Part shown: one piece after another, positions 10,557-64,000 of the stretch
Numbering within the stretch: position 1 is the stretch's first letter
Layout of the letters: each line of letters begins with the position of its first letter
Origin: Bacilli bacterium
GTDB taxonomy: Bacteria > Bacillota_I > Bacilli_A > ML615J-28 > CAG-698
Reading direction: 5' to 3'
NCBI GenBank assembly: GCA_017962745.1
Contig: JAGCUR010000005.1
Span: 7,193-71,192, forward strand
Length of the DNA stretch: 64,000 nt
Notes under the pieces: generated by a model
What the model was told of the DNA's origin: nothing
Seen by the model: only the letters and a program-made list of their open reading frames with translations
Databases searched by the model: none
Made by a program: the position numbers and the translations under genes

Positions 10557-11138
10557 TTACTTTTTATTTTTAACTTTTTTGTGTCGATAATAAAAATCAA
10601 CACTGTATTTTTTAATAAATTCTCTAACAATTAATAAAATTGCACAGACGATTAAATATCTACCAATTGAAATTGGCGTAACTATAAAAGGTATAAAGAT
10701 ACATACAAATAATGCTACTAGTGGCGGTACTACCATCACTAGCCCAAATGTTTGAATGAATGTCTTTTTAAAAATTACTAAGAATACATTTCTTAATACT
10801 AATTCAATAGCACTAAACATTAGGCTATAGAATAATAAATCATACCATTTACCTTCACACCAACTAATATATCCACTTAAGCCAATAAATAGTAAGGCTG
10901 TAGATATAATGTAATATAAAGATTCGATTAAAATCGTTAAGAAGTTACGCTTCGGTGCTTTTATGGAAATGACACGAATTTGATTTTTATCAACACCCAT
11001 TTGTTGACTTAAGTCATCAAGCATTTGTTGCATCTCTTTTTCCACATCTTCTGCAGTCTTCTTTTTTGGTTTATCTTCTTTCTCTTTAGTCTCTTCTTTT
11101 TTATCTTTTGGTTCTAATTCGTTTTTATTATCTTCCAT
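10557..11138 (-). CDS. Hypothetical membrane protein (charged N-terminal 60 aa, then 3-4 TM helices)
   Basis: ORF with a K/E/D-rich N-terminus followed by hydrophobic helices. No recognisable family. Confidence 0.5.
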   Translation of the reverse strand: MEDNKNELEPKDKKEETKEKEDKPKKKTAEDVEKEMQQMLDDLSQQMGVDKNQIRVISIKAPKRNFLTILIESLYYIISTALLFIGLSGYISWCEGKWYDLLFYSLMFSAIELVLRNVFLVIFKKTFIQTFGLVMVVPPLVALFVCIFIPFIVTPISIGRYLIVCAILLIVREFIKKYSVDFYYRHKKVKNKK

Positions 11139-11147
11139 TTTTCTACC

Positions 11148-23300: not shown

Positions 23301-24806
23301 CTTTTCATAATCAGCTTTTAAGTTATCATTTTCAGTTTGCTTGCTTAAAAGAGAATTATTGGCTTTAGTAAGTTGCATCTTAGCAGTAGTTAATTCTTTA
23401 CTAGCTTGATCAACTTCTTTTTGCTTATCCTTTAATTCTTTCGCATGTTCTTTTTGAATTGCTTTAACTTTCGCATTAAATTCTTTATTTAAGTTTGCTT
23501 CAATCTTAGAAGTATCGACACTGCTTGCATTCTTTAATTCATTTGCTTCCTTTGATAATCTTTCAACTTCTGAATCAAATCTATTTTGTAAAGCCTCATA
23601 TTCTTCATCTTTAGCTTTCAATGCTTCGTTATATTTTTCATTAACGCCTTCTTCTAATTTAGCGTTTTCTTCTTTTAGACGCGCATTTTCTTCTAAAGCT
23701 AAAGCTTCTTTAGCTTCAAGTTCTTTAACTTTAGCTTCAAGATTAGCAATTTCTTCTCTAAGCTTAGCAAGGTTAGCATCTTCAATTTCTACTGGTTCTT
23801 CTTTAACTTCAGCTTGAACCTTAGCTAACTTATCTTTTAAGTTCTTATTCTTAGCTTCAAGTTCTTTAAGATTCTCTTTAACTTGATCATCTTTAGCCAT
23901 CTTGCCATCCATGATTCTTTGTTCTAAATCTTTTTTAGCGGCAATTTGTTCACGAAGACGTTGTAAGCTTTCGCTAACATTTTCATCTTTTTTAGCTGGG
24001 CCTTCTTTTTTAACACCAGTTTTCTTTGGTCCTAACTTTTCAAGACTTGTATCAGGAGTAGTCTTTTTAGCTACTTTGATATCATCGCTAGCTTCATTTT
24101 CTTGATTCTTAGAAGCATTTTCTAAGCTAGCCAGTTTATCTTCAGCTGCTTTACGAGCTATTGCTCTAGCTTCAGCTTTTTCTTTTTCACGCTTAATTAA
24201 AGCTTCTAAGCGCGCTTTTTCTTTTTCTTTCTCTTTAGCTTCTTTAATTGCTTGTTTAGCTTTTTCTTTAGCTTTAGCTTGTTTAATTGCTTGTTTTTCT
24301 TTTTCTTTAGCTTTTGCTTTCTTTACAGCTTCTTTTCTTTTAGCTGCTTCTTTAGCTTTAGCTTGTTTTTCTTTTTCTTTCTTAGCTTGCTTTTGCGCTT
24401 CTGTTAATGGTTTCTTTGTAGAAGCTTTTTTAGCTGCTGGCTTTTTAGCAGCTGGTTTTTTTGCTGGAGCCTTGGCAGCTGGCTTTTTAGCAGGTGCTGC
24501 TTTCTTTTCTTCTTTTGGAGTAGCATCTTCTACCTTTGCTTCTTCAGCTTTTGGTTCTTCAGCTTTTGGTTCTTCAGCTTTTACTTCTTCTACTTTTTCT
24601 TCTTGTTTTACATCTTCATGAAGCGGTTCGCTTGGCGAAGAGTCTTTGTTTTCGTTTGCTTTTTCGTTGATTGCGTTTTCGATAATGGCGCTATCGTCAT
24701 CTAGCAAACTCTTTTTCATATCCGCTAATTCTTTTTCGATTGAAAATTCTTCATCGTGTTTATTTGCGTTTTTTTGTTTATTTTCCATTCTAAATTCCTC
24801 CGCCAA
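20388..24806 (-). CDS. Giant coiled-coil protein with N-terminal Lys/Ala/Pro-rich (histone H1 / AKP-repeat-like) tail; function unknown
   Basis: 1472 aa; N-terminal PKAEE x3, AKKPAAK repeats and KAKEKEK runs; then more than 1000 aa of heptad-rich E/K/L sequence; no TM and no Walker motifs (not SMC). Confidence 0.8.
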   Translation of the reverse strand: MAEEFRMENKQKNANKHDEEFSIEKELADMKKSLLDDDSAIIENAINEKANENKDSSPSEPLHEDVKQEEKVEEVKAEEPKAEEPKAEEAKVEDATPKEEKKAAPAKKPAAKAPAKKPAAKKPAAKKASTKKPLTEAQKQAKKEKEKQAKAKEAAKRKEAVKKAKAKEKEKQAIKQAKAKEKAKQAIKEAKEKEKEKARLEALIKREKEKAEARAIARKAAEDKLASLENASKNQENEASDDIKVAKKTTPDTSLEKLGPKKTGVKKEGPAKKDENVSESLQRLREQIAAKKDLEQRIMDGKMAKDDQVKENLKELEAKNKNLKDKLAKVQAEVKEEPVEIEDANLAKLREEIANLEAKVKELEAKEALALEENARLKEENAKLEEGVNEKYNEALKAKDEEYEALQNRFDSEVERLSKEANELKNASSVDTSKIEANLNKEFNAKVKAIQKEHAKELKDKQKEVDQASKELTTAKMQLTKANNSLLSKQTENDNLKADYEKKLELANKEIELLKNDLTNAKERNVKDADVLSEVEEERSKLVEKNRELEKGKKEVELQESYLNLYKQEIDAKANEAIKEAKDELAKYKKENVIKEAEIREDEAKKYAGLAEDVKELEAKLKEANAQNRDLTANNIDLDRKLAEANVSINSLNELNNSLNEEIARLSEKVRNLTNDNPDLSSDEDLREQLKAKELEVVRLANEVDKLKEQLEIEKAAYAKQSEAIGKQLDEMIKGVEENETSIANTALVIENYREALENEKNAHLEAEQELYEALKEKELEIKRLEDSIKESKRDQQIDKIADLVQDLSRRDMFGPRVPYQGPFYGYNDPYDNMVREDHDREIAKRDQVIAGLQKERKQESDALNAKIEALEAQIKDLNEALAKKQETQSSNINYSELEEYASKLKDIFKANELKGFNNLASLLDAYKAAKKQNEFVYANENDKLNIATKYAGAELQDTIKAKKEMLDDVYAKSIKELDANLDSAVEDIKKGNVVSPVVTPVSEDAVVVNLDAPAEVKKDLVSGEEVASTPDGDIVSTEAPIYDSYEEKVAEFEELAPLEARQTPLIEASDEPQVVITFDSEYLNKLNNIRRTRKSLEERKVVENANHKIELSNNDALQKEYAKKIEELKARIEEISADYQNGEDHSEEALEKFEVEKQKVFFELTTRQSQLNKLSDDDVRKINLRYQNIIKGIEDQLLRLEEEEKALKETYLNKQAKEQSKLAREAELNKKFEEANVVKDDEPRIIESQDEIRERKYREFLDSQVSRQPRKLIAEDDITDIRVNDKGEVVSGKDTISPVDKEEVKEALNNNVYEDLEVKKEVAPEKEEEIELKESKISPKEVELHKKYESFCQAEKTYSNDIASVREYKKLKEQYLSFDLAIAENNEKIAGLNEVLKASNDTNEIANLKNQINDLKAKGDNLKNNRDYAKKQVNEASKDKRVKEYLKLVDKIEEAGNLIKKYQAKRDKKNK
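24420..24600. repeat. Short tandem in-frame repeats (15-bp PKAEE units and AKKPA units) inside the coiled-coil gene
   Basis: ttcagcttttggttc x3 and gctggctttttagcagctgg-type reiterations visible in the DNA. Confidence 0.7.
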
Positions 24807-25848
24807 ATAATCCCCTAATTATTTCAAATGATATGTAACCATATACGGTACTTGCACATAAGTATGTGCCTTTAAATAATATAAACCTCGTGATGTAAAG
24901 GAATGTCTTTCTTCCTTTCATCTTTGCCATCTTGTGTGTATATGCATCGCTTAGGGCTTCAATGTCACTAAAGTCCACATCTGTAATACCCGTATCACTA
25001 ATTGGAAGTGGGTCTAGTTTACATTCTTTTTTACGCAATGCTTTTTGATAGTATTTTAATGTTTTCTTTGATTTACGATTGAAGTCGCTATTTACTTTGT
25101 TTGTTAATTTTTCATTTAAGCTAGCATGAGTTTTAGTGTAACTTGTAAATTCATGACAAACTGCATGATACAAGCCAATAAATAACATACTAGTGATCGC
25201 AATATAAATTCCTACTACTGCTACGATATTTACCCACTTTGAGCTAAATGCAGCTTCTCTAGCTAGTTCTAAGTTTAAATGTAATTCTTTACCAAATAAT
25301 GTGAAGTCTTTTGCAATACCCCATAATTTAGTAAGTCCAAAATACATTACAAGTAGGGCTGCAAGTCCTAAAGGTAAAAAGATATAAGCACCGACTTTAA
25401 TCTTAGCGATATCGTTAGGTCTAACAGCTTCTTTTACATCGCTTACTTTTAAAATAACTTTTGATTTATTTTCTTTGTATTCTTTAATCCAAGCTTTAAT
25501 GGCATTTAGAATTATCTTTTTACGTTTACCAAGTTTAAATTCTTCTGTCCTTAAAACTTCTTTAATCGTTCTAGTTTCTTTTCTTTTAACTTTTACTTTA
25601 AAGTCTTCGATTGAATGAACATTACATTTATCTGCTTTATTAACGCGGAACATGAAAGGATTACCATTAATTGCATGTTCGTGTTCATAAACTACTTCTT
25701 CGTTATATCGTTTAATGATTTGTTCTTTTTGTTCAATGTCTTCATCATTTGCTATACTTTGATTTTCACTATCTACATCATTAATTCTATTTTCATCTTT
25801 TGATGTAGGGTCAAGATCATAAGTTTTAATTTCACGATTCTTACGCAT
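24790..25848 (-). CDS. Membrane protein (cytoplasmic charged N-domain, 2 TM, C-terminal domain), translationally coupled to the coiled-coil gene
   Basis: 352 aa; TM helices IFLPLGLAALLVMYFGL and VNIVAVVGIYIAITSMLFIGLY; its stop overlaps the start of the 1472-aa ORF by 17 nt. Confidence 0.6.
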   Translation of the reverse strand: MRKNREIKTYDLDPTSKDENRINDVDSENQSIANDEDIEQKEQIIKRYNEEVVYEHEHAINGNPFMFRVNKADKCNVHSIEDFKVKVKRKETRTIKEVLRTEEFKLGKRKKIILNAIKAWIKEYKENKSKVILKVSDVKEAVRPNDIAKIKVGAYIFLPLGLAALLVMYFGLTKLWGIAKDFTLFGKELHLNLELAREAAFSSKWVNIVAVVGIYIAITSMLFIGLYHAVCHEFTSYTKTHASLNEKLTNKVNSDFNRKSKKTLKYYQKALRKKECKLDPLPISDTGITDVDFSDIEALSDAYTHKMAKMKGRKTFLYITRFILFKGTYLCASTVYGYISFEIIRGLFGGGI

Positions 25849-40024: not shown

Positions 40025-40101
40025 TGGTCGGAATAATGAGATTCGAACTCATGACCTCTAACTCCCGAAGCTAGCGTTCTACCAAGCTGAACTATATTCC
40101 G
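40025..40101 (-). tRNA. tRNA-Pro (anticodon CGG)
   Basis: 77-nt cloverleaf: 7-bp acceptor CGGAATA/TATTCCG, D arm GTTC-AGCTTGGTA-GAAC, anticodon arm CTAGC-TTCGGGA-GTTAG (CGG), T arm ATGAG-TTCGAAT-CTCAT, discriminator A, encoded CCA. Confidence 0.85.
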
Positions 40102-47488: not shown

Positions 47489-47944
47489 TTAAATGACATC
47501 AATGGTTTTTCCTAAAGCATTAAAAAGCTTATTAATCTTTGCTAAAGTGGGGTTACCTATCCCTTTTTCTAGTTTAGAAATGTCGCCTTGATCAATATGC
47601 GATAGCTTTGATAGTTGTACTTGTGTAATTCCTTTTTCTTCTCTAGTCTTTGCTAATAGTAGCCCTATTTTTTGATTCAAAGTAGTTGATACATAACCTA
47701 CTAGTTCACCATCTTCATAAACTGTCATTGCATCAATATCAATATCATCATTCCAAATTACGCCATAACCACCTCCATCAAGATGGCCACTTAAGAATAA
47801 ATCGCGATTAAGTTCTAATTCTTTAATCTTTGGATACTTATTCTTTAGCAAAGCCATATCATATATTATTACTTTACCATCCTGAAAAGTAAGTTCAATT
47901 TTTACACCTTCTAAAAAGCGAATGTTTATAGCAGAAACAATCAT
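47489..47944 (-). CDS. DUF2442 domain fused to C-terminal XRE-type HTH
   Basis: N-terminal 85 aa follow the DUF2442 pattern (ELTFQDGKV..DLFLSG..GYGVIWNDDIDIDAMTVY); C-terminal KGITQVQLSKLSHIDQGDISKLEKG is a Cro/C1 HTH. Confidence 0.65.
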   Translation of the reverse strand: MIVSAINIRFLEGVKIELTFQDGKVIIYDMALLKNKYPKIKELELNRDLFLSGHLDGGGYGVIWNDDIDIDAMTVYEDGELVGYVSTTLNQKIGLLLAKTREEKGITQVQLSKLSHIDQGDISKLEKGIGNPTLAKINKLFNALGKTIDVI

Positions 47945-48132: not shown

Positions 48133-48161
48133 ATTATATGGTATTTATACCATATTGTCAA
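48133..48161 (-). promoter_or_regulatory. Consensus sigma-70-type promoter (TTGACA-17-TATAAT) with a perfect 9-bp inverted repeat (atatggtat-N2-ataccatat, 48136-48155) in the spacer; putative autoregulatory operator
   Basis: Minus-strand read: TTGACAatatggtataaataccaTATAATtaaggagg..ATG; the palindrome occupies the spacer and overlaps the -10. Confidence 0.6.
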
Positions 48162-48221
48162 ATGTATATTTTGCATTTCATACATATAATTAACATAAGA
48201 GTTAACTTTTTCTTAACAAAA

Positions 48222-48254
48222 TAAAAAAGATGCAATCGCTTCACGATTACATCT
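48222..48254 (-). terminator. Rho-independent terminator downstream of the flavoprotein gene
   Basis: Stem gatgcaatcg / cgattacatc (one mismatch) followed on the minus strand by TTTTTTATTTTG. Confidence 0.5.
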
Positions 48255-48263
48255 CTAGTTAAA

Positions 48264-48887
48264 TTATCTAATAAAATTAGTAGCAACTCTTTCTTCGTCT
48301 TCTAGCATTTCTTGATACTTTTCTTTTCCATCTTTAATCGATTTCATCAAGAAAGCCATTCTTTTAGCGACAATTCGCGCGTTACGAAGTCCTTCTAAAT
48401 CCGACTTAACTTCGCCTTTAGCGCCACCAAAAGCATTGTTCCAATAATCACCTGATGCTATAGGCATACCAGATATTGTGAAATACTTGTTGATGATATC
48501 AAAGCTAGTTTCAGTTCCGCCACGTCTAGCTATATTGAAGTTAGCACCAACTTTAAATCTAACGTCATAATTTCTACTATAGAAAAGCCTATCAAGTAAT
48601 GAAATTACTGATCCATTTGGTGAACCAAAATATACTGGGCTCACAACAATTAGTCCATCGGCTTCTTTAAACTTTTCACTTACTTCATTTACGATATCAT
48701 TAAATACGCAACCGTTTTTCGTCTTTTTACAAGTAAGGCAGGCCATGCAGCCCCTTACTTCTTTAGTGCCAATATTTTGAATAACAGTTTGTACATCATA
48801 CTTATTAAATTCGTTTTCTAATTCTTCAATTAAATTAGCACAATTACCATCAATACGCGGTGATCCATTAATAATTAGTACTTTCAT
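48264..48887 (-). CDS. Iron-sulfur flavoprotein-like NADPH-dependent FMN reductase (flavodoxin-like fold with compact Cys cluster)
   Basis: MKVLIINGSPR, SPVYFGSPNG flavodoxin-like motifs plus CX2CX2CX6C (CMACLTCKKTKNGC) as in the Isf family; 207 aa. Confidence 0.65.
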   Translation of the reverse strand: MKVLIINGSPRIDGNCANLIEELENEFNKYDVQTVIQNIGTKEVRGCMACLTCKKTKNGCVFNDIVNEVSEKFKEADGLIVVSPVYFGSPNGSVISLLDRLFYSRNYDVRFKVGANFNIARRGGTETSFDIINKYFTISGMPIASGDYWNNAFGGAKGEVKSDLEGLRNARIVAKRMAFLMKSIKDGKEKYQEMLEDEERVATNFIR

Positions 48888-53688: not shown

Positions 53689-54207
53689 TTAAAATAATTC
53701 ACTAATCATGCTTTGTCTTTTTTGCACGCGTTTAGCTTTATATACTTTTGAACATAAAAACTCTTTTAAAGCTATCCATGTATCCGCATTACATACAATT
53801 CTAGCTTCAGTTGTTTTTGGAAAACACTTAAAATTAATCGGCCACATATGAGATAATATTAAGTTTGCTACTTTATCACTAATATCAAAATCTCTTTTAG
53901 CATTGCTTACCGCAATCGATGGATGCCTTGATCCATGATGTTTAAGCAAGCTTCTATCGCTTCGCCAATCATACAAATAATAATCGTGTAAAATGGAAGC
54001 AATCAAGATCGACTCTAAATCTAATTCTTTCTTTTTCTTTAGCGCTCTTTTAATTGCTAATTTGGCAACTAAAAATGAGTGAATATAACAATTAGATCCG
54101 CGATGCATACTAACATCCTTCATCCTATCAATTAACGGATTATTTAAATATGAATAATAAATTGTTTCTAGTTTTTCTTTTTCTTCTAAACTTAAACTTC
54201 TTTTCAT
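53689..54207 (-). CDS. HD-domain phosphohydrolase
   Basis: HSFLVA..ILHDYYLYDW..H..D pattern consistent with an HD metal-dependent phosphohydrolase; 172 aa. Confidence 0.55.
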   Translation of the reverse strand: MKRSLSLEEKEKLETIYYSYLNNPLIDRMKDVSMHRGSNCYIHSFLVAKLAIKRALKKKKELDLESILIASILHDYYLYDWRSDRSLLKHHGSRHPSIAVSNAKRDFDISDKVANLILSHMWPINFKCFPKTTEARIVCNADTWIALKEFLCSKVYKAKRVQKRQSMISELF

Positions 54208-54278
54208 ATATTGGCCTTTTACTCTACTTTAAATTATAACATAAAAAAGACTAGAAAAATCTAGTCTTCGCAAATTAA

Positions 54279-56309
54279 TTAGTTAATTTTTTTGGTTAAT
54301 GTTAAGATGTTTTTATTATCTAGATATTGATAACTTACTTCATCCATATTTTTCTTAACTAAGAATATGCCTAGTCCACCAATTTGACGATCTTCAGCTG
54401 ATAAAGTATTATCGGGATCAGCTTTCGCAAGCGGGTCAAATGGCATACCACTATCAATAAATTGTAAGGTTACAACTCCATCATTAAATCCTAATTTGAT
54501 TTCACAATCGCCTTCTCCTTCACCATATGCATAATTAGCGATATTAACAAACACCTCTTCAATCGATAAATCAATTTGGGTTTGGGCTTTCATTTGGCAA
54601 TCGTGCTTTTCTAAGAATTCATCGATAAATTCCATTACTTGATAAAGGTTTTCATTCTTCGCCTTTACAACTAGTTTATTTTCTTCTTTTTTGTTTAGTT
54701 CAAAGCATACCATAGTTAAATCATCAAACTGAGGCGCTTCTCCTACGAACTTGTCTACATCTGAATGAATGAAATCTAAGATTTCTTTTGGGGAAGATGC
54801 TTTACATTCATTTAAAGCATTTACCATCCTATTCATACCATATAACTCTTTATCCGTATTAGTAGCTTCAGTAACTCCATCAGTATATAAAAATAGTTTA
54901 TCGCCCGGATGTAAATCAATCTCATAATCGTTATATTTAGCATTAGCGTTAGCACCGATTACTAAGCCATGCTTATTTTTGAATAATTCAAATGATCCCC
55001 CATCGTGATATATTGCTGGGTCATCATGACCAGCATTACTTGCTACAATCTTGCCTGTAGATAATTGCACAATACCCAGCCATACAGTTACAAACATATC
55101 AGCTTCATTGTGCTTACAAATTCCTTCATTAACAAATGTCAATATTTCTCCTGGTGTTCCACCCATTCGCGTTCTGTCGCTTATTAGGATGTTAGTTACC
55201 ATCATAAACAAAGCAGCCGGAATTCCTTTTCCACTTACATCCGCAATGACGATTGCTAAATGATCATCATCAATTAAGAAGAAATTATAGAAGTCCCCAC
55301 CTACAACTTTCGCTGGGGTCATACTAGCATAAATACCAAAGTCAGATCGTTCTGGAAAGGCTGGGAAATTATTAGGAATTGAGTTTTCTTGAATAGTTGA
55401 TGCTATTGATAACTCAGCTCCAATTTTTTCTTTTTCTTTAGTAGCAATAGTTAAGTTATTCATATAACTTAACATATCTTCTTCCATCTTATCGACCGAT
55501 TTAGCTAAATTCGATATTTCTTGAATCCTACTAATATTACCTAACTTCTCGCCTTGCGAACTCTCTTTCGCAAATCTTGTAGCTTCATTTGCCACTTTAC
55601 GCATTGGTTGAACAAACTGTTTCTTTAAATAAGCTATCGTAATTAGAGCTGTAAGGATAGCAACTAATATAATTGAAAGAGCGATATTTACTAAATATGG
55701 CTTTCTAGCTGCTTTCAATTCACCAATCGGCCTTTGAATGCACATTAATGCTACTACTTTACCATTAGATGCTTTCATCGGCACTAAAATGGTAATGTGC
55801 GGATTTTGGCCATTCAAATTTCTGGTCCTAAAAACAGTTTCATATTCTTCTTCGCCTTTATACAAAGTTTCATATTTTTTTTTATATTCATCATTGGTTG
55901 TGTCGCGCTTATGACCTAATTCCCATGGCGTATAATTAGTATTATCGACACCATTATTAACCGCATTAAAGATGGATACAAATCTTCCATAATCGCTTTC
56001 ATCTACTTTAATAATATAGACAAGCGATAAATTCATTTTATCGCAATATGCATCTAGATAAGCTTTCGTTTGATTATATTCTTCATCAATCCCATTTTCT
56101 AAATAATTATCTAGATGATCTATATTTACTAATGAACAGGCAGTTGCCGCCATATGGTAAGATGTTGTAGAGTATTCTTTTTTAAAAGCAGTCGTAAAAC
56201 TCATCAATCCAATTACGCTAACAACTAAACTAAAGAATACAAGCAATACCAATATGAAGCTAATAATACGAAAAGATAAAGATGAAAATATTTTTTTCAG
56301 TTTATTCAT
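54279..56309 (-). CDS. Membrane sensor PP2C (SpoIIE/RsbU-type) phosphatase fused to a C-terminal RsbW/SpoIIAB-type GHKL serine kinase domain
   Basis: TM1, extracytoplasmic domain of about 170 aa, TM2, HAMP-like linker; PP2C motifs (GGDFYNFFLIDDDHLAIVIADVSGKGIPAALFM, FDDLTMV); C-terminal N-box EEVFVNIANYAY and G-boxes IDSGMPFDP, GGLGIFLV. Confidence 0.75.
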   Translation of the reverse strand: MNKLKKIFSSLSFRIISFILVLLVFFSLVVSVIGLMSFTTAFKKEYSTTSYHMAATACSLVNIDHLDNYLENGIDEEYNQTKAYLDAYCDKMNLSLVYIIKVDESDYGRFVSIFNAVNNGVDNTNYTPWELGHKRDTTNDEYKKKYETLYKGEEEYETVFRTRNLNGQNPHITILVPMKASNGKVVALMCIQRPIGELKAARKPYLVNIALSIILVAILTALITIAYLKKQFVQPMRKVANEATRFAKESSQGEKLGNISRIQEISNLAKSVDKMEEDMLSYMNNLTIATKEKEKIGAELSIASTIQENSIPNNFPAFPERSDFGIYASMTPAKVVGGDFYNFFLIDDDHLAIVIADVSGKGIPAALFMMVTNILISDRTRMGGTPGEILTFVNEGICKHNEADMFVTVWLGIVQLSTGKIVASNAGHDDPAIYHDGGSFELFKNKHGLVIGANANAKYNDYEIDLHPGDKLFLYTDGVTEATNTDKELYGMNRMVNALNECKASSPKEILDFIHSDVDKFVGEAPQFDDLTMVCFELNKKEENKLVVKAKNENLYQVMEFIDEFLEKHDCQMKAQTQIDLSIEEVFVNIANYAYGEGEGDCEIKLGFNDGVVTLQFIDSGMPFDPLAKADPDNTLSAEDRQIGGLGIFLVKKNMDEVSYQYLDNKNILTLTKKIN

Positions 56310-56313
56310 ATTA

Positions 56314-56610
56314 TTACCTAATTGTTAAGAAGTCCGTAAATCCTGTTATTTCAAATACTTCCATTACATCTTCTTGCACGTTTTCAATAACCATTTCTCC
56401 TCGACCACTCATTAATTTTTGGGCTTTCAAAAATATTCTAAGTCCGGCTGAAGATGTATAATCCATTTCTTTTAAATCAAATACTAAAGATGTAACACCT
56501 TCTAAGTTTTCCATAAGGAATGATTCAAGTTCTGGTGCAGTAACTGTATCTAGTCTGCCATTTAAACAAATAGTTAGTTTTTCTCCTTCACGTGTATGGC
56601 TAATATTCAT
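56314..56610 (-). CDS. STAS-domain anti-sigma-factor antagonist (SpoIIAA/RsbV-like)
   Basis: 98 aa; conserved phosphorylatable-serine motif DYTSSAGLRIFL; 4 nt upstream of the PP2C-kinase gene. Confidence 0.8.
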   Translation of the reverse strand: MNISHTREGEKLTICLNGRLDTVTAPELESFLMENLEGVTSLVFDLKEMDYTSSAGLRIFLKAQKLMSGRGEMVIENVQEDVMEVFEITGFTDFLTIR

Positions 56611-56626
56611 AATAATTCTCCTTAAA

Positions 56627-57202
56627 CTAAATTATATTTTTAATATTCTTAATGACATCATCAATTATTAACTCTGCGTTACTTCCATCAATATCTAAGC
56701 CTTCAGCTTTAATAAATAATGTATTTTTAATTTCAAAGAAATCTTTAGCAAGACTATCGACATAATTAAATGCATAATTATCTTTAGGAATAAACCCACC
56801 AGATGTAGCTACATATATTAATCTTTTTGCTTTGCATAAGCCAACTGGAATTCCTTCATCACTATATACAAAACTCATTCCATTGATACATATATTTTCT
56901 AAATATATCTTTAAGACAGATGGAAAAGATAAATCCCAATACGGAGCAGCAATGACAATCTCATCAGCCTCTTTAAACTGCTTCACATAGCGAAAATAAT
57001 CATCGCTAAAATCATTTTCTAAAAATGCCTTGTCTCTTAAGTCTAATGCGTCTTTATCGAGTGGTTTGATATCTTCTTTATATAAATCTACTTCTGCTAT
57101 CCTGCCATCTAGATTATTAAGCACTTCTTTTGCTAACTTAAGTGTTCTAGAATTAGAGCGCAAGCAAGCATTGATGAATAATATGTTTTTCATTAGAACC
57201 AA
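56627..57202 (-). CDS. FMN-dependent NAD(P)H:quinone oxidoreductase / azoreductase-like flavoprotein
   Basis: ADEIVIAAPYWDLSFPSVLKIYLENI parallels AzoR [26 protein letters not shown]; the likely true start is the internal MKNILFINA. Confidence 0.65.
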   Translation of the reverse strand: MVLMKNILFINACLRSNSRTLKLAKEVLNNLDGRIAEVDLYKEDIKPLDKDALDLRDKAFLENDFSDDYFRYVKQFKEADEIVIAAPYWDLSFPSVLKIYLENICINGMSFVYSDEGIPVGLCKAKRLIYVATSGGFIPKDNYAFNYVDSLAKDFFEIKNTLFIKAEGLDIDGSNAELIIDDVIKNIKNII

Positions 57203-58332
57203 AGTGAATCAAGTGTCTTTACATTTTCATTTATGAAGTTTAAGCAATAAGCACTTACTTGACTTGCATATGGATCATCTAGACCAAATCTACGTACCAT
57301 CCAACGGAAGATATGCAAGTAACTGATAAAGGCTGCTTTTCTTTCCACTTCTTTAATGAAATCTTCATCACGACCTTCAAAATAATATTTTAAAGTATAT
57401 TTCCATAAGTCTTGGCATTGATTTCTTTCAATTCCTAAGAAAGCGGCACTATTGTTTTTATCAATGCAAGAATAACCTAAGTATGCTCCATAAATTTCTG
57501 AGAATTCAAAGATTGGATGACCTAAAGCTAGGGTATCCATATCGATAAGTAAATTCTCATTGTTTTGTTTCATAATGTTTTTAATATGATAATCACCATG
57601 AAGCATATTATTTGTATTAGGTACATCATTAACTAATTTCATTACTTTACCGTAAACTTCAGCGCTTAAGTAAGGTTTTGCAAATTCAGCCCACTTTAAA
57701 ACTTCTTCTTTTTTGTTTGGAAGTTCACCTGGTTTTAAGGTAGTTGAGTGAATAATCTTTAAGATATCAACGCTTTCTTTTGCTAACTGTTCTACATTCG
57801 CGCCTTCACGGATTAACATCGCAAATGATTTCGCATTAAGTAGTTCGAAAACTGAACCATATAATTCTCCAACTTTAACTACATCGTATGGAATAGCAGT
57901 TGGGATTCCCATAACAAATGCTTTACGCGCTAGTTCTCTTTCATGTTGGATATCAGCTAGAGAATCAGGATTCTTATAAAGTTTAACTATTGTATCAGGA
58001 TCAGTACGATATACGATACCATTAGCACCTTCGCCGATTACTTCGCATCCTTCAATTGATATTTCACGATATGCTTTTGATATTTCCATCATCTCTGTAA
58101 AACCAGTCATATCAAATATTTCATAAACGTCTAGTTTACAGTTGATAATTTTCGTATCTGGATTGCTCTTTTTAATCCTTAAGATTACTCTTAAACCAGC
58201 GCTTGAAATATATTCAAGGCCTGACGCATCAAGAATAATCTCACCACTAAAACCATTAATTTCTTGGTTAAGAGCCTCTTCTACGGCGCTCGCGTTTGTC
58301 GAATCGATTCTACCTGTTAATTTTACGATCAT
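57193..58332 (-). CDS. STAS-domain protein fused to an APH/protein-kinase-like phosphotransferase domain
   Basis: N-terminal 100 aa STAS with EYISSAGLRVIL; C-terminal Gly-rich loop GEGANGIVY..VKLYK, catalytic HGDYHIKNIM and IDMDTLALG (Brenner/HGD and DFG-equivalent motifs). Confidence 0.7.
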   Translation of the reverse strand: MIVKLTGRIDSTNASAVEEALNQEINGFSGEIILDASGLEYISSAGLRVILRIKKSNPDTKIINCKLDVYEIFDMTGFTEMMEISKAYREISIEGCEVIGEGANGIVYRTDPDTIVKLYKNPDSLADIQHERELARKAFVMGIPTAIPYDVVKVGELYGSVFELLNAKSFAMLIREGANVEQLAKESVDILKIIHSTTLKPGELPNKKEEVLKWAEFAKPYLSAEVYGKVMKLVNDVPNTNNMLHGDYHIKNIMKQNNENLLIDMDTLALGHPIFEFSEIYGAYLGYSCIDKNNSAAFLGIERNQCQDLWKYTLKYYFEGRDEDFIKEVERKAAFISYLHIFRWMVRRFGLDDPYASQVSAYCLNFINENVKTLDSLWF

Positions 58333-58458
58333 AGTTTTCTCCTTAAATTATTATCTATTAACATTATAACAAAAAAATAATGATATAAAAACTATAAAAA
58401 AGAAAAAGACTAATTATTTATTTAGTCTTTTTTCATAGTCAAATATGCATTAAAAGTT

Positions 58459-59589
58459 TTAATTCATTAGTTTATCTTTTAATGTGTTAATTTGTAATTC
58501 GCTCATTCCGGCTTCAGTTAAAAATGCCTCAGCATATACTGATAAATCACAAGTTTTATAATCTACACTATTATCATTTACCATGCTTTTTATCATTGGG
58601 TTAAGTAAACTATCAATGATTACGCTATATTTATCTGAATCTTCCCCAATACGATAATAATTATAATATGTAATCATATAGTCTTTTACTATTTCATCAT
58701 AGCCTGCTCCAACTAATGCTTCTAGTAACATACAAACAAAGCCAGTTCGATCTTTTCCTTCAGTGCAGTGTACAAGATATGGCCCATCGTGTTTAATCAT
58801 TTCTTTTAAACCGCCCGCAACTTTTTCTTTAAAGTCTTGAGAGCCATAATTCATATTTAGACCGATTGGATAAACAGCATCACTTTCATATAATGCTAAG
58901 AAATATGGGCAGTTAAATGAAGGATTATTGATGTAACCACTAACTTTTGCATCAGTATCTGCCAAATCTAAAATAAATGATACTCCTGCTTCTCTAATTA
59001 GCGCATCTACAAATGTAGCTCTATTATGTTGGTTATCGCAAGGTGAAGCTGAACGATATAACGTATTAGCTTTTAAACCCGTTACATTAGAGGCTCTAAA
59101 GTTAGCAAACATCTCATCACTATCATATCTTTCTCTTTCATCAAGATATTGAAGATTACGAACATTTTGAATTGGCAGATATTTGCCTTTTTCATTTATG
59201 GTAATAGTTGCTGTATCTTCTTCAGACAAATTTGCCACAAAGAATAAATCATCACCATTATTAATTGCTACTTTAATAAAGTCATAGCCAGGGTATGCTA
59301 CAAGCAATGGTTCGCCATTATTTGTATAATAACCATTATAATATGGGATATCCTCTAGTATATAGCCATTAGAAAACTTAACAGTTACCGAATCACCATA
59401 CTCAAAACCTAGTTCGTTAAATTCTTCGATTGTTTTAGTAACATATACACCACCAAATTCTAATTCGTGAATTATTGGTTGTTTTTTAAGGGCTACTTTA
59501 CCACTGCAGGCAAATATTGGTAAAACTAGTATTATGCATAAGATACTAAATATTAAAATATAAGATAAAACATTTTTGATTTTCTTCAT
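58459..59589 (-). CDS. Secreted/lipoprotein tyrosine-phosphatase-like protein (CX5R P-loop)
   Basis: Signal peptide with lipobox-like LPIFACSG; C-terminal HCTEGKDRTG PTP active-site loop; 376 aa. Confidence 0.65.
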   Translation of the reverse strand: MKKIKNVLSYILIFSILCIILVLPIFACSGKVALKKQPIIHELEFGGVYVTKTIEEFNELGFEYGDSVTVKFSNGYILEDIPYYNGYYTNNGEPLLVAYPGYDFIKVAINNGDDLFFVANLSEEDTATITINEKGKYLPIQNVRNLQYLDERERYDSDEMFANFRASNVTGLKANTLYRSASPCDNQHNRATFVDALIREAGVSFILDLADTDAKVSGYINNPSFNCPYFLALYESDAVYPIGLNMNYGSQDFKEKVAGGLKEMIKHDGPYLVHCTEGKDRTGFVCMLLEALVGAGYDEIVKDYMITYYNYYRIGEDSDKYSVIIDSLLNPMIKSMVNDNSVDYKTCDLSVYAEAFLTEAGMSELQINTLKDKLMN

Positions 59590-59655
59590 AATCTTATCTC
59601 CCTATTTATAACATCATTATATAACAATACTTTACCAATAACAAATAAATATGAT

Positions 59656-59684
59656 TTGCCAAAGAAGGGTTATTATGATATAAA
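59656..59684 (+). promoter_or_regulatory. Putative sigma-A promoter for glgB (TTGCCA-17-TATAAA)
   Basis: ttgcca, 17 nt, tataaa, about 25 nt upstream of a GGAGG RBS. Confidence 0.45.
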
Positions 59685-59705
59685 GGATTTGTATTAAGAA
59701 TTATT

Positions 59706-61715
59706 ATGGAGGTAAAAATGTATCGCCTAATTAATATATTTCCTGAATTAAAACCATTCAGTAATGATATTGATTTAAGAATGGAACGTTATAAGAATAA
59801 ACATAAGCAATTAGTTAAGCGTAATAAGACATTATGCGATTTTGCTAATGCACATAACTATTATGGCTTCCATCGTTTAGATAATGGCTGGGTATACCGT
59901 GAATGGGCACCTGGTGCTGATATGTTATACCTTACCGGTGATTTTAATAATTGGCACTGGTTAGATCATCCAATGACTAAACTAGATAATGGTAATTGGG
60001 AATTATTCTTAAGTGGGGAGACAATTCATCCAGGCAGTCGCGTCTTAACTATCGTTAAGAATGGTGACAAGTTGACTCAACATATCCCCCTTTATGCTCG
60101 CCGTGCTATTCAAGACCCGACTACGATGAGTTGGTGTTGTGAAGTAACTGATGACCTAGCTAATTATCCATGGAGCGATGAAGGATTTTTTAGCGATGAA
60201 GCCCCTCTAATTTATGAAGCACATGTGGGGATGTGCGGTGAAGGCCAAAAAGTTGAAACATACCGCGCGTTTGCGGATAACATCTTACCTCATGTTAAGT
60301 ATTTAGGTTATAACACAATTCAGCTAATGGCAATTATGGAACATCCATATTATGGCTCATTTGGTTATCAAGTAAGTAGCTTCTTTGCGGCTTCATCTAG
60401 ATTTGGTTATCCTGATGAACTTAAATATTTAGTCAATAAAGCTCATTCGATGGGTATTAGAGTATTACTAGATGTCGTGCATTCACATGCGGTAAGTAAT
60501 ACGCTAGAAGGCATCAATATGTTTGATGGTACTGATTACCAGTTCTTCCATAGCGGAGCTAAAGGTAATCACCCAGCCTGGGGTACAAAACTATTTAATT
60601 ACGATAAACCAGAAGTCCTACACTTCCTACTAAGTAACTTGAAGTTTTGGATGGAGGAATATCATTTTGATGGTTTCCGCTTTGATGGCGTTACATCAAT
60701 GCTTTATCACGACCACGCTTTAGGTACTGATTTTTCTAATCTAGCGATGTATTTTACAATGAATACTGATATTGAAGCTTTGACTTACTTGCAACTAGCT
60801 AACGAGTTAATCCATCAAGTTAACCCCCATGCGATAACGATCGCGGAAGATATGAGCGGTATGCCAGGCATGTGTAATGATATTAAAGATGGTGGTATCG
60901 GTTTTGATTACCGTTTAGGCATGGGCTTACCTGATATGTGGATTAAGTTAATCAAAGAGTGCAGTGATGAAAACTGGAACTTAGGCGCAATCTGGCACGA
61001 ATTAACTAACCGCAATGTTAAGACTATTGCTTATACTGAAAGCCACGATCAAGCTTTAGTAGGTGATAAAACAATTATGTTTAGGCTAGCTGATGCGGCA
61101 ATGTACACGCAGATGCGTAAAGACTGCCATACCCCAGTAATTGATAGAGCCATGGCCTTACATAAAATGATTCGCTTAATTACAATTGGAGCTGGTGGCA
61201 ATGGTTACCTTGACTTTATGGGTAATGAATTCGGTCATCCAGAATGGATAGATTTCCCACGTGTAGGTAATGGTAATAGCTATTGGTACTGTAGAAGACA
61301 GTGGAGCTTATTATTCAATCAAGATTTAAAATATCAATGCTTAAATTACTTTGATCGCGATATGGTTCATACTGCTGCATACTATCACATATTTGATCAA
61401 TTCTGGCCAGATATCAAATGGATTCACGAAGATGATAAAGTAATTGCCTTTGAAAGAGGTGGATTACTATTTGCCTTTAACTTCTCACCAACTAAAGATT
61501 ATTCGGATTATTCAATCCCAGTAAGTAAAGGTGAGGATTATGAAGTGTTATTCTCAAGTGATGATTACATTTATGGCGGATTCGGTAGAATCGAAAGAAA
61601 ATCACATAGTGCCTTTATTCCTGGTATGAATGGTAACTATGTGAGATTATATATGCCATCTAGGACATGTATCATTCTTTGTCCTAAGAGTATGGTAGGA
61701 AAAAAAGAAGACTAG
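59706..61715 (+). CDS. glgB: 1,4-alpha-glucan branching enzyme (GH13)
   Basis: GH13 catalytic regions (GIRVLLDVVHSHA, GFRFDGVTSMLY, EDMSGMPG, YTESHDQALVGDK); a GGAGG RBS positioned for the second ATG (59718) suggests the true start is MYRLINIF. Confidence 0.85.
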   Translation: MEVKMYRLINIFPELKPFSNDIDLRMERYKNKHKQLVKRNKTLCDFANAHNYYGFHRLDNGWVYREWAPGADMLYLTGDFNNWHWLDHPMTKLDNGNWELFLSGETIHPGSRVLTIVKNGDKLTQHIPLYARRAIQDPTTMSWCCEVTDDLANYPWSDEGFFSDEAPLIYEAHVGMCGEGQKVETYRAFADNILPHVKYLGYNTIQLMAIMEHPYYGSFGYQVSSFFAASSRFGYPDELKYLVNKAHSMGIRVLLDVVHSHAVSNTLEGINMFDGTDYQFFHSGAKGNHPAWGTKLFNYDKPEVLHFLLSNLKFWMEEYHFDGFRFDGVTSMLYHDHALGTDFSNLAMYFTMNTDIEALTYLQLANELIHQVNPHAITIAEDMSGMPGMCNDIKDGGIGFDYRLGMGLPDMWIKLIKECSDENWNLGAIWHELTNRNVKTIAYTESHDQALVGDKTIMFRLADAAMYTQMRKDCHTPVIDRAMALHKMIRLITIGAGGNGYLDFMGNEFGHPEWIDFPRVGNGNSYWYCRRQWSLLFNQDLKYQCLNYFDRDMVHTAAYYHIFDQFWPDIKWIHEDDKVIAFERGGLLFAFNFSPTKDYSDYSIPVSKGEDYEVLFSSDDYIYGGFGRIERKSHSAFIPGMNGNYVRLYMPSRTCIILCPKSMVGKKED

Positions 61716-61733
61716 TAACTAGTCTTCTTTTTT
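61701..61733. terminator. Bidirectional terminator palindrome shared by convergent glgB and the PP2C sensor gene; both stop codons lie inside the stem
   Basis: aaaaaagaagactagt-a-actagtcttctttttt; glgB TAG at 61713-61715, minus-strand TAG at 61719-61721. Confidence 0.7.
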
Positions 61734-63944
61734 GTTTCCACGATATTCTACACAAAGCATTGTTAAATCGTCGAATTGTTCCGCATCCTTAACAAATTCA
61801 TTTACTTCTTTGCGGACAGTTTCTAATATTTCTTTTGGAGATGCATTGCCTGCTTTATTTAAAGCAACAACCATTCTATCCATTCCAAATAATTCTTTTT
61901 CACTGTTAGTAGCTTCTGGAACACCATCTGTATAAATGAATAACCTACTGCCAGGTTCTAGCATAATATCATATTCTTTATATTTAGCACCATCAATTCC
62001 ACCGATAACAAATCCATGTTTATCTTTGAATATTTCAAAATTACCATTTGGTTGTTTAACAACTGGATATTCGTGACCGGCATTAGCAGCAGTTAACTTA
62101 CCAGTCGATATTTCTAAAATACCCAACCATACGGTAACAAACATTTCTTCGCGGTTATTAGAACAAATTGCTAAGTTAGTATCGGTAAGAATTTGAGCTG
62201 GTGATTTACCCATTTGGGCATTATTAGCTAAGATGATCATTGATGCCATCATGAATAGTGCAGCAGGTACTCCTTTACCACTTACATCAGCGATAAAGAT
62301 ACATAAGTGATCATCATCTACTAAGAAGAAGTCGTAGAAGTCGCCACCTACTTCTTTGGCTGGGTCCATTGATGCATAAACATCAATTTCTGGACGTTCT
62401 GGGAAGGCTGGATAAATGTTAGGTAACATATCAGCTTGAATACGAGTAGCAAGTGATAATTCAGCTCCGATTCTTTCTTTTTCGGCTGATATTCTAGCAA
62501 CCTCAGATATATACTTAACAGTCTTTTCTGATAACATTGCAAATGATTCCGCAAGTAACTCAATCTCATCATGAGTACGATATTCATCTTCCATAACGAA
62601 TTGCAAATTATCGCCATCTAGTGATTGGATACGTTTTGTAATTGTTTCTAATGGTTTTACAATACGCTTAGATAAAATTAGTGAAGCCGTAATGGCTAAA
62701 ATTACAATGATTGCAAGTAACACAATGATTGTCATCTTAGTTTGCGAAATACCTTTATTGTATGAGATAGTAGCATCATCTTTAATAGTGTCTAATTGGT
62801 CGATCATCATAGTAGTTGGCAGGTCAGCAAGTGACTTTGGTACAACACTTATAATTGCCCAGCCAACGCTAGCTATTGGGGCACCAGCTACATAATTTAA
62901 GCCATCAGATAATTCGATTAAACGCAGATTAGTACTTTCACTCATTGCATCGTTAATAAATGCAGCGAGTTGTGTGTTAGAAGATTGTCTTAAGTCTTCT
63001 GCTTCTTCTGCAGGTACCACTCTAAATTCACCAGTTGTTTGCGGTGAGAATAAGACATGACCGTTTTGATTAACGATACATACGAAGCTACCACTTCGAG
63101 CTGTAGCATTAACTGCTGCTGATACATCATTTAAGAATAAGTCGGCCCCAATTACAGCTACTAATTCTTCTCCTTGATAAACAGGTAGTGAGCACATAAT
63201 ACTAATTTCATTGGTGAATAAGTCAGTCGTAACATCAGTGAAATGTATTTTTCTAGATTGAACTGCTCCTGTATACCATAATCGTTCACGAATAGGAATT
63301 GATAATAAGTTGCCATTATCATCAAACTTTGATTTTGAATGATCATCAACTAGTAGCATTACACCATCAGGTAATGCACAATAGCAAGAATCAACTTTGG
63401 CATCCGAATAAACTGCCATCATTAATTCTGATAAGTTACCGATAAGTCCTAACTTAGCGCTAATCGTAGGATCATCTAAATCAACGCCTTCTTCTTTTAG
63501 AACTTGCATGGTAATCTCGCCATCTTTGTTAATATCTGGTAGTTCCACATCTCTTGCTGGATAATCACCAGGATTAGCAAATAGCTTACTAGTATAATCA
63601 GCAATTATATTAACAATTTTAATCGTATCATCGAATAAATCTTCCGCGATATATGCTTCCATTTGAATACTTTGAAGCATATTAGAATCTAATAATGCTG
63701 TCATAGTTTGTTCAGAAATGGATGTAATTGAATCATTTTGTGCTTCATTTGTATTACGTACTAGATTAGTCAATCTACCACTTTGATAAAATACAACTGC
63801 CGCAAAAGCAGCCATCATCAAAATAATCGTAATAAGCACTAAATTAAATATCTTCTGTTGGATACCACCGATTGTAATGTTTTTAAATTTCTTCATATAC
63901 TCATACCATTCCCATTCTAAATCACTACCCGTAAGGGTTATCAT
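61719..63944 (-). CDS. Membrane sensor PP2C (RsbU/SpoIIE-type) phosphatase with large extracytoplasmic ligand-binding domain and HAMP linker
   Basis: TM1, extracytoplasmic domain of about 350 aa, TM2, HAMP; PP2C motifs GGDFYDFFLVDDDHLCIFIADVSGKGVPAALFM and FDDLTMLCVEY; no kinase domain; 741 aa. Confidence 0.75.
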   Translation of the reverse strand: MITLTGSDLEWEWYEYMKKFKNITIGGIQQKIFNLVLITIILMMAAFAAVVFYQSGRLTNLVRNTNEAQNDSITSISEQTMTALLDSNMLQSIQMEAYIAEDLFDDTIKIVNIIADYTSKLFANPGDYPARDVELPDINKDGEITMQVLKEEGVDLDDPTISAKLGLIGNLSELMMAVYSDAKVDSCYCALPDGVMLLVDDHSKSKFDDNGNLLSIPIRERLWYTGAVQSRKIHFTDVTTDLFTNEISIMCSLPVYQGEELVAVIGADLFLNDVSAAVNATARSGSFVCIVNQNGHVLFSPQTTGEFRVVPAEEAEDLRQSSNTQLAAFINDAMSESTNLRLIELSDGLNYVAGAPIASVGWAIISVVPKSLADLPTTMMIDQLDTIKDDATISYNKGISQTKMTIIVLLAIIVILAITASLILSKRIVKPLETITKRIQSLDGDNLQFVMEDEYRTHDEIELLAESFAMLSEKTVKYISEVARISAEKERIGAELSLATRIQADMLPNIYPAFPERPEIDVYASMDPAKEVGGDFYDFFLVDDDHLCIFIADVSGKGVPAALFMMASMIILANNAQMGKSPAQILTDTNLAICSNNREEMFVTVWLGILEISTGKLTAANAGHEYPVVKQPNGNFEIFKDKHGFVIGGIDGAKYKEYDIMLEPGSRLFIYTDGVPEATNSEKELFGMDRMVVALNKAGNASPKEILETVRKEVNEFVKDAEQFDDLTMLCVEYRGNKKED

Positions 63945-64000
63945 TCATATAATATCATTGTATCATAAACTACCCCCTATTTCATAATCTTTTTAATATG

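Follow-up and report, generated by a model that had tools for sequence, protein, structure and literature searches.

Partner switching is the textbook path to alternative sigma factors in Firmicutes, exemplified in Bacillus subtilis by RsbU/RsbP-RsbV-RsbW-SigB and SpoIIE-SpoIIAA-SpoIIAB-SigF, where RsbU and RsbP both act on phosphorylated RsbV and the sigma gene directly follows rsbW or spoIIAB. The subject of this analysis is a four-gene operon that carries the parts of such a switch, found in the region 54279-63944 of a 64-kb stretch of DNA from a Bacilli bacterium (assembly GCA_017962745.1); that whole stretch is called the window below. Partner switches that do not act on sigma factors, regulators in which kinase and phosphatase are fused, and fusions of STAS to enzymes have all been described before. 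HsbR/HsbA of Pseudomonas aeruginosa and CrsR/CrsA of Shewanella oneidensis are of the same bifunctional kinase/phosphatase type as SypE/SypA of Vibrio fischeri. In the V. fischeri pair, one polypeptide with an RsbW-like kinase and a PP2C phosphatase sets the phosphorylation of its STAS partner SypA, whose output is non-sigma (PMC8256260, PMC10120452). SiaA of P. aeruginosa is a membrane-anchored, HAMP-containing PP2C; its partners are a kinase and a small switch protein, the latter activating the diguanylate cyclase SiaD (PMC8457831). In Anabaena, All4160 is a STAS-glycosyltransferase, and the RsbW-like kinases Alr3423 and All2284 together with the PP2C HenR control the enzyme via STAS phosphorylation (bioRxiv 10.64898/2026.04.08.717354). 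Control of PP2C activity by exchangeable sensor domains acting via a coiled-coil linker that is dimeric has been proposed to be general (PMC12143880), and MlaB-MlaF provides an example of a STAS protein acting on an ABC ATPase (PMC7367683).

With moderate confidence, we take the four-gene operon to be the functional unit: a phosphoserine module of the partner-switching type, in which the local output is not a sigma factor but an APH kinase fused to a STAS domain. Domains were called by Pfam, and the parts of the operon are as follows (ORF, open reading frame; aa, amino acids).

58371-54246, minus strand: the four-gene operon, in the order STAS-APH, Flavodoxin_2, STAS, sensor-PP2C-RsbW, with hairpins on both flanks.
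58363-58371, minus strand: extended -10 box TGTTATAAT, a putative promoter read from the sequence, about 30 nt 5' of the STAS-APH start.
57193-58332, minus strand: STAS-APH fusion of 379 aa, with Pfam STAS (1-88) and APH (98-278).
56627-57193 (ORF to 57202), minus strand: Flavodoxin_2 / AzoR-like NAD(P)H-FMN oxidoreductase, 188 aa from the overlapping ATG (Pfam Flavodoxin_2 77.5 bits, E 1e-21).
56314-56610, minus strand: stand-alone STAS protein of 98 aa, RsbV/SpoIIAA-like (Pfam STAS E 3e-13; TIGR00377 67.6 bits, over cutoff).
54279-56309, minus strand: membrane sensor of 676 aa (Pfam SpoIIE/PP2C E 4e-50, full-length; HATPase_c_2 E 7e-23).
54246-54269, minus strand: intrinsic-terminator-like hairpin with a 10-bp stem and T-run, directly 3' of the stop codon of the sensor gene (terminator scan and sequence).

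The stop codon of STAS-APH and the ATG of the flavoprotein overlap as TAATG, 4 nt separate the STAS stop from the ATG of the sensor, and the four genes are predicted to be translationally coupled or nearly so. In the closest genome, the buffalo-rumen metagenome-assembled genome (MAG) Bacilli bacterium RGIG8164 (L004), the protein corresponding to the 676-aa sensor is 76% identical and the gene order reads CstA, then STAS-APH, Flavodoxin_2, STAS, PP2C-GHKL, HD, Cls, ABC and ABC permease.

The 676-aa sensor is laid out as a first transmembrane segment (TM1, residues ~14-38), a Cache/PDC-like ectodomain of ~165 aa, a second transmembrane segment (TM2, ~206-228), a long helical linker, a PP2C domain (347-538) and an RsbW-type GHKL domain (549-673). 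Across an alignment of 27 full-length homologues, the metal ligands of the PP2C domain (GGD339, D357VSGKG, TD477G, D529D530) and the N, G1 and G2 boxes of the GHKL domain (E585..N589, D619xG621, G644GLG647) are invariant; by its sequence the protein has an intact PP2C phosphatase and an intact RsbW-type GHKL serine kinase on the cytoplasmic side of the membrane. In its AlphaFold2 (AF2) model (predicted local distance difference test, pLDDT, 82), the ectodomain comprises a long helix and five strands in a Cache/PDC-like topology, and one 71%-identical homologue has a precomputed dCache_1 match. Foldseek searches with this model returned 3ke6, the RsbU and RsbW domains of Mycobacterium tuberculosis Rv1364c, as the top PDB match (E 3e-19), the PP2C domain of SiaA as the best PP2C fold by TM-score (0.85), and SpoIIAB (1l0o) with a TM-score of 0.74. 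Matches of the GHKL domain to the RsbW and SpoIIAB models of NCBIfam were weak, and all equivalog scores lay far under their cutoffs. Full-length SpoIIE matches were obtained for both PP2C proteins of the region (171 and 168 bits), the second being a 741-aa protein encoded upstream, and the HATPase_c_2 match of the 676-aa protein scored 81.5 bits; Pfam found no Response_reg (REC) domain in either PP2C protein.

Ser54 of the 98-aa STAS protein aligns, in an alignment to structures, with Ser58 of SpoIIAA and Ser56 of RsbV, the phosphorylated residues of those proteins. The STAS domain of the 379-aa fusion shares 33% identity with the free protein and bears the motif YISSAGLR, in which Ser44 is the phospho-acceptor equivalent; SSAGL is invariant in the alignment of the fusion family. 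A flexible linker follows, and then an APH-fold kinase with P-loop GEGANGIVYR, K117, catalytic loop HGDYHIKN (245-252) and IDMDT (263-267), of which GEGxNGxVYR, K117, HGD247xHxKN252 and D264/D266 are invariant in 14 homologues. Its score against APH (PF01636) is 33.6 bits against a cutoff of 23.2, with the Brenner catalytic loop HxDxxxxN and the metal-binding Asp present. NCBIfam yielded a TIGR00377 match and 105.1 bits over the full model of TIGR02172, an APH-like paralogous family, which is less than the cutoff of 228.2; by these scores the fusion appears related to TIGR02172 but outside the curated family. The closest folds to its AF2 model (pLDDT 85) are APH(2''), 5-methylthioribose (MTR) kinase, amicoumacin kinase and choline kinase, and the stretch between the metal-binding Asp and the following helix is only a few residues long, as is typical of small-molecule kinases. 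Since both the fold and this short activation segment resemble those of small-molecule kinases, the APH domain most likely phosphorylates a metabolite and not a protein.

An earlier note on this DNA, made from the sequence alone, had named PP2C, RsbW-type GHKL, two STAS, APH kinase, Flavodoxin_2, PTP-like and dCache domains, and all were recovered by Pfam HMM search; its description of a partner-switching-type gene set, with PP2C, RsbW-type serine kinase and STAS domains with conserved phospho-serine, and of a resemblance to Rv1364c, also stands. Two membrane sensors with ectodomains were likewise borne out, as hydropathy places two TM segments around the ectodomain of each PP2C protein. The HAMP domain assigned to both sensors fared less well: in the 741-aa protein it reaches 18.5 bits, under the Pfam cutoff of 25, and in the 676-aa protein Pfam gave no match, the AF2 model showing only the long helical linker.

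Neither large protein is rare, and the module as a whole makes up a large, uncharacterised family in Firmicutes of the rumen and gut. At least 8000 homologues exist for each of the STAS-APH and 676-aa architectures, and full-length identities of 54-67% to proteins of Eubacterium, Ruminococcus, Ruminococcaceae and Clostridia MAGs were found for both. The homologues are named only as "STAS domain-containing protein", "phosphotransferase", "TIGR02172 family" or "SpoIIE family protein phosphatase", and a search of the literature for the STAS-APH family, for TIGR02172 or for a module of HATPase_c_2, SpoIIE and STAS found nothing, nor any characterised member. An exhaustive search with the kinase domain alone gave 1981 clusters at 50% identity (393 at E <1e-30); STAS stands directly ahead of the kinase in 121 of the best 150 clusters, most of which keep SS(A/S)G(L/I).

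The genomic company kept by STAS-APH was surveyed in 80 metagenome loci, fetched with a STAS-APH profile and annotated by phmmer queries from the window, so that the fusion is constant by construction; many of the contigs are short. A STAS protein of ~98 aa lies near STAS-APH in 35 of the 80 loci and an RsbW-like GHKL domain in 38, fused to PP2C in 19 and free in 20 (one locus has both), such that 51 loci have at least one switch partner. An HD_4 protein is present in 41, and stands immediately upstream on the same strand in 31 of the 58 loci with enough upstream sequence. In 16 loci the contig extends for 3 kb or more to either side, and of these 8 have STAS and 8 have GHKL within 6 kb. The hits L005-L009, in high-GC Clostridia, are distant or PP2C-only proteins and proved uninformative. 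The gene orders that recur are HD_4, STAS-APH, STAS, RsbW; HD_4, STAS-APH, STAS, PP2C·GHKL; STAS, PP2C·GHKL, STAS-APH; and STAS, RsbW, HD_4, STAS-APH. With the flavoprotein gene bracketed out, the window's order of STAS-APH, STAS and PP2C·GHKL matches a recurrent pattern that is met both with and without a leading HD_4 gene. In the order STAS-RsbW-(HD_4)-STAS-APH, the fusion stands where the classical operons have sigB or sigF.

Pfam searches on 149 neighbour ORFs identified HD_4 in 21, SDF in 7, Hydrolase_4 in 7, Metallophos in 6, BrkB in 4 and Flavodoxin_2 in 2. The HD_4 neighbours, the most frequent of the family, are hydrolase-only relatives of RelA/SpoT of ~190 aa, resembling small alarmone hydrolases, with HD and ED motifs intact (for example L079:7379-7963; L088:7395-7955 and 11042-11641; L010:7425-7988; and ~40 other loci). 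Genes of two other families recur around the module: an SDF-family gene (sodium:dicarboxylate symporter) of 532-536 aa lies in or beside it (L093:11174-12784, L095:11144-12742, L094:15676-17274, L079:4931-6535), and a Peptidase_M15 (VanX-like) gene is found in L012, L094 and L095. L093 has in addition an FMN_red/Flavodoxin_2 gene 2 kb from its module.

The same associations are met within single polypeptides. Fusions among the 50%-identity representatives include HATPase_c_2-STAS-APH, two cases of STAS-APH-HATPase_c_2, HD_4-STAS-APH (P0371) and HD-CE-STAS-APH. The RsbW-type fusions argue that the STAS domain of STAS-APH is a direct partner of an RsbW-type kinase, and the fusion with HD_4 connects hydrolase and kinase. 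Further fusion partners of STAS-APH are PHP, a PolyA_pol head nucleotidyltransferase, an Na/H exchanger and a GH3 adenylating enzyme, a wide range for one core; fusion representatives are P0244, P0251, P0314, P0260, P0312, P0319, P0384 and P0389. STAS-APH is the most conserved and most diagnostic member of the module, and is probably its output. The copy in the window is an ordinary member of this group without the usual HD_4 partner.

Set beside the B. subtilis switches, the module shares the PP2C, the serine kinase of GHKL type and a STAS protein whose phospho-serine is equivalently placed, and its region contains two PP2Cs with different sensors that could converge on one STAS pool in the manner of RsbU and RsbP. 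It differs in having no sigma gene nearby, in placing kinase and phosphatase on one membrane protein, and in fusing the second STAS domain to an APH-fold kinase. Rv1364c, the best structural match and also a sequence match, has PP2C and RsbW fused in the same order; unlike the 676-aa sensor, it is cytoplasmic, senses through PAS, ends in its own STAS domain and acts with SigF, whereas here a transmembrane Cache-like sensor is accompanied by separate STAS genes, one of which bears an enzyme. SypE, HsbR and CrsR are also cytoplasmic, are switched by REC domains and have no STAS-kinase fusion as a partner, in contrast to the extracytoplasmic sensor and helical linker found here. SiaA (NF038263) is the best NCBIfam match of both PP2C proteins, but only with 70.9 and 73.8 bits against an equivalog cutoff of 700 (~10%), and no GGDEF protein is encoded here; SiaC, to our knowledge, is not a Pfam STAS protein. 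The closest precedent in logic is All4160/HenR, in which a STAS domain is N-terminally fused to an enzyme under kinase and PP2C control, though that enzyme is a glycosyltransferase and not an APH-fold kinase, and that system has, in an operon, neither a further free STAS nor a sensor in which PP2C and kinase are fused.

From what is known of RsbU/V/W, SpoIIE/AA/AB and SypE/SypA, the GHKL domain would phosphorylate the STAS serine and the PP2C domain would remove the phosphate, with the ligand state of the ectodomain setting the balance of kinase and phosphatase through the helical linker, again by analogy with the family. Gene order, co-occurrence and fusions suggest that the STAS domain of the fusion would replace the sigma factor as alternative partner and/or substrate of the RsbW domain, with the free 98-aa STAS protein competing for that same domain. 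Whether the APH kinase is free and active would then depend on how the two STAS domains are phosphorylated. In most other genomes the HD_4 hydrolase encoded directly upstream may reverse the APH reaction, and in the window the 741-aa dCache-PP2C is a probable second input, passing another extracellular signal to the one pool of phosphorylated STAS.

Several points weigh against this interpretation. Firstly, about half of the long-flank loci have STAS-APH, with or without HD_4, and lack STAS or GHKL within 6 kb (6 of the 16 have no switch partner in that range), meaning that the linkage is strong and not obligatory. Secondly, no HD_4 gene was found anywhere in the window, though one is typical elsewhere. 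Thirdly, some of the fusion proteins could be artefacts of gene calling in metagenomes. Fourthly, residues 75-86, in the linker between STAS and kinase, have pLDDT <50 in the AF2 model, and given this low confidence and a model that came with no predicted aligned error, no docking of STAS on the kinase is claimed. Fifthly, it is possible that a sigma factor is encoded elsewhere in the genome, of which 64 kb were seen. Finally, the GHKL domain's choice of STAS, the effect of phosphorylation on APH activity, the sign of the regulation and the substrate of the kinase are wholly what we infer.

In one alternative, judged unlikely, control is anti-sigma and exerted in trans: the RsbW domain would sequester a sigma factor encoded elsewhere, the 98-aa STAS protein would be the antagonist, and STAS-APH a side branch or second antagonist. 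Its attractions are the GHKL domain's likeness to RsbW and SpoIIAB, weak in the family models and, for SpoIIAB, present also in the fold, and the closest overall structure, since the RsbW domain of Rv1364c sequesters SigF. The earlier note had reported no sigma gene in the cluster, and in the 64-kb window as a whole none of the sigma-70 family was recognised (ORF translations read by eye, with Pfam on unclear ones). None lies beside the module here, in L004 or in about 90 related loci; five long contigs, read from precomputed Pfam annotation, have none within +-8-10 kb, and Sigma70 is not among the 25 most frequent families of the 149 neighbour ORFs. A sigma gene just past the window edge was also considered, and dismissed on finding that a 98%-identical strain has aminotransferase and NAD-epimerase-like genes there. 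The earlier note suggested a reduced genome that may have few or no alternative sigma factors. The module does occur in a genome with a small acid-soluble spore protein (SASP) gene (L094), presumably that of a spore-former, which would then have several sigma factors; this sits well with control in trans, and it equally implies that the module is not defined by a lack of sigma factors. In favour of STAS-APH in place of a distant sigma factor, (HD_4-)STAS-APH fills the slot classically taken by the sigma gene after rsbW or spoIIAB, and RsbW-STAS-APH fusions suggest that the fusion is the cognate partner.

A second alternative, also improbable in our judgement, makes the free 98-aa STAS protein the output, as with SypA, RbaV and SiaC: when unphosphorylated it would bind and regulate a non-sigma target, for example either the cargo encoded beside it (flavoprotein or SDF) or an ABC ATPase in the style of MlaB, leaving STAS-APH as a second STAS kinase or a decoy. 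STAS-only proteins with non-sigma targets are documented in the unphosphorylated state (PMC8256260; PMC8457831; PMC7367683), the slot directly between STAS-APH and STAS is taken by a gene that varies (Flavodoxin_2 here, SDF in L093 and L095), and an ABC transporter is encoded downstream both here and in L004. The cargo, however, is not conserved, with Flavodoxin_2 at 2 and SDF at 7 of the 149 neighbours, while STAS-APH is constant, in its case by construction of the census; the ABC genes lie past the terminator and stay with the module only in the close relative; and a second protein kinase is not what an APH fold with the activation segment of a small-molecule kinase would suggest.

A bolder proposal goes beyond STAS-APH as the output and is more speculative still: the partner switch would gate a cycle of small-molecule phosphorylation, in which the APH kinase makes a phosphorylated metabolite or nucleotide-like signal and HD_4, its usual neighbour and at times its fusion partner, dephosphorylates it. 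This would amount to an unrecognised second-messenger or alarmone-like system, driven by extracellular Cache sensors and widespread in Firmicutes of the gut and rumen. Chance juxtaposition of unrelated signalling genes, for which it can be said that glgB, the PTP lipoprotein and dCache-PP2C genes are separate units and not beside the module in L004, is highly improbable for the 10-kb region and contradicted for the four-gene core, which is coupled or nearly so in translation and whose STAS-APH, STAS and PP2C-GHKL/RsbW elements recur in dozens of independent loci and as single-polypeptide fusions, though it remains true of glgB and the PTP gene.

If the wiring proposed here, with STAS-APH as the output, is true, then partner switching would gain an enzymatic, post-translational class of output, and would do so in the same phylum from which the sigma paradigm came. 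The same three-part chemistry would be wired to a STAS-fused fold of antibiotic and metabolite kinases, often together with an alarmone-hydrolase-like enzyme, in thousands of genomes of rumen and gut Firmicutes. The 98-aa STAS protein, STAS-APH, the cytoplasmic half of the 676-aa sensor and HD_4 make up a concrete set of proteins that would link Cache-sensed extracellular signals to metabolic change in abundant gut anaerobes.

The remaining features of the region are as follows.

61719-63896 (ORF to 63944), minus strand: dCache_1-TM-(HAMP-like)-PP2C protein of 725-741 aa with no kinase domain (Pfam dCache_1 and SpoIIE), a separate monocistronic unit.
59706-61715, plus strand: glgB (Pfam CBM_48, Alpha-amylase, Alpha-amylase_C), converging on the 741-aa gene.
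58459-59589, minus strand: Y_phosphatase3 (PTP-like) protein of 376 aa (Pfam E 7e-17), with HCTEGKDR matching the CX5R active-site motif and an N-terminal hydrophobic/lipobox segment.
58442-58413, minus strand: promoter-like site from a consensus scan.
~58431-58395, minus strand: AT-rich hairpin and T-run ending the PTP gene, 5' of the operon's TGTTATAAT box, read from the sequence.
54233-54241, minus strand: second TGTTATAAT box, 5' of the HD gene.
53689-54207, minus strand: HD gene, downstream of the operon and first of an HD-cls-ABC block.

The 741-aa protein shares 51% identity with the 676-aa sensor over 318 aa of linker and PP2C, and can be aligned over its whole length (34% identity, 738 aa) to a dCache-PP2C-GHKL protein linked to the module, stopping where GHKL begins. 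As the alignment halts exactly at the start of GHKL, the protein is best read as a kinase-less paralogue, which could answer to another ligand by removing phosphate from the same STAS domains. Its ORF probably starts at Met17, because the 98%-identical strain begins the gene at the equivalent residue. Contigs from other samples that are identical to the window all end no more than 400 nt upstream of this gene, where a divergent gene begins (window 63945-64000; L001:1-402). That gene, which starts MNNDIIKLLNLESYNIDLDKS, is missing from the same spot in the 98%-identical strain, and is probably a repeated or mobile element inserted there.

The window has a G+C content of ~32%, with nearly all of its genes on the minus strand, and seven ORFs fall within 54279-63944. 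The earlier note took these as about 10 kb of minus-strand genes, missing the plus-strand glgB in mid-region; the run is interrupted, and it comprises several transcription units: hairpins, T-runs and the two TGTTATAAT boxes divide the region into at least five, namely dCache-PP2C, glgB, PTP, the four-gene operon and HD-cls-ABC. The switch operon and the HD-cls-ABC block thus share one extended -10 sequence, TGTTATAAT, which lies ahead of each of them and just past a hairpin/T-run terminator. A consensus promoter scan returned 75 sites against 84.9 expected from shuffles; with no enrichment in that scan, the promoter calls are inferences from the two TGTTATAAT boxes read by eye. Rfam and ARAGORN/tRNA scans of the 64 kb gave only a tRNA-Pro(CGG) (40025-40101, minus strand), and no riboswitch or leader near the operon.

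NCBIfam azoreductase models matched the Flavodoxin_2 protein below cutoff. Its gene is found at this position only in the clade of the window (L001, L004, L014), other genomes having an SDF transporter there, and it is a lineage-specific cargo within the operon; the SDF gene often lies exactly between STAS-APH and STAS, the slot of the Flavodoxin_2 gene here. The PTP-like protein, once counted as a component, is a predicted extracytoplasmic lipoprotein with its own terminator-like hairpin, encoded beside the module only in near-identical strains and one other locus, and is more fittingly called a neighbour. The HD hydrolase, cls and ABC exporter genes had been taken as hints of the output; they are situated past the terminator behind a putative promoter of their own, accompany the module only in L004 and are not among its recurrent neighbours. 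The PTP lipoprotein, glgB, HD, cls and ABC genes are bystanders and not components. The window's HD gene was tried as a counterpart of the recurrent HD_4 neighbour and rejected (phmmer E 0.058; hhalign probability 1.5%), belonging to an unrelated HD subfamily. A defence-system reading was similarly discarded, PADLOC giving no meaningful match for STAS-APH, PP2C-GHKL, STAS, the flavoprotein, HD, HD_4 or PTP, the HD match being weak (E 0.0012).

Within 9 kb there are two genes for flavodoxin-fold NAD(P)H/FMN reductases, one being the operon's Flavodoxin_2 gene (56627-57193, minus strand) and the other an FMN_red gene that ends the ABC block (48264-48887, minus strand). The latter is followed by a strong terminator with a 14-bp stem and then by a perfect TTGACA-17-TATAAT promoter (both in 48133-48256, minus strand) before a DUF2442-HTH_3 gene (47489-47944). 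Elsewhere in the window, a gene with a TTG start (20388-24806, minus strand) encodes a Lys/Glu/Ala-rich, mostly coiled-coil protein of 1472 aa, unusually large and of low complexity amid housekeeping genes; its start overlaps the end of the upstream gene for a 352-aa membrane protein (24790-25848, minus strand), which has no Pfam match.

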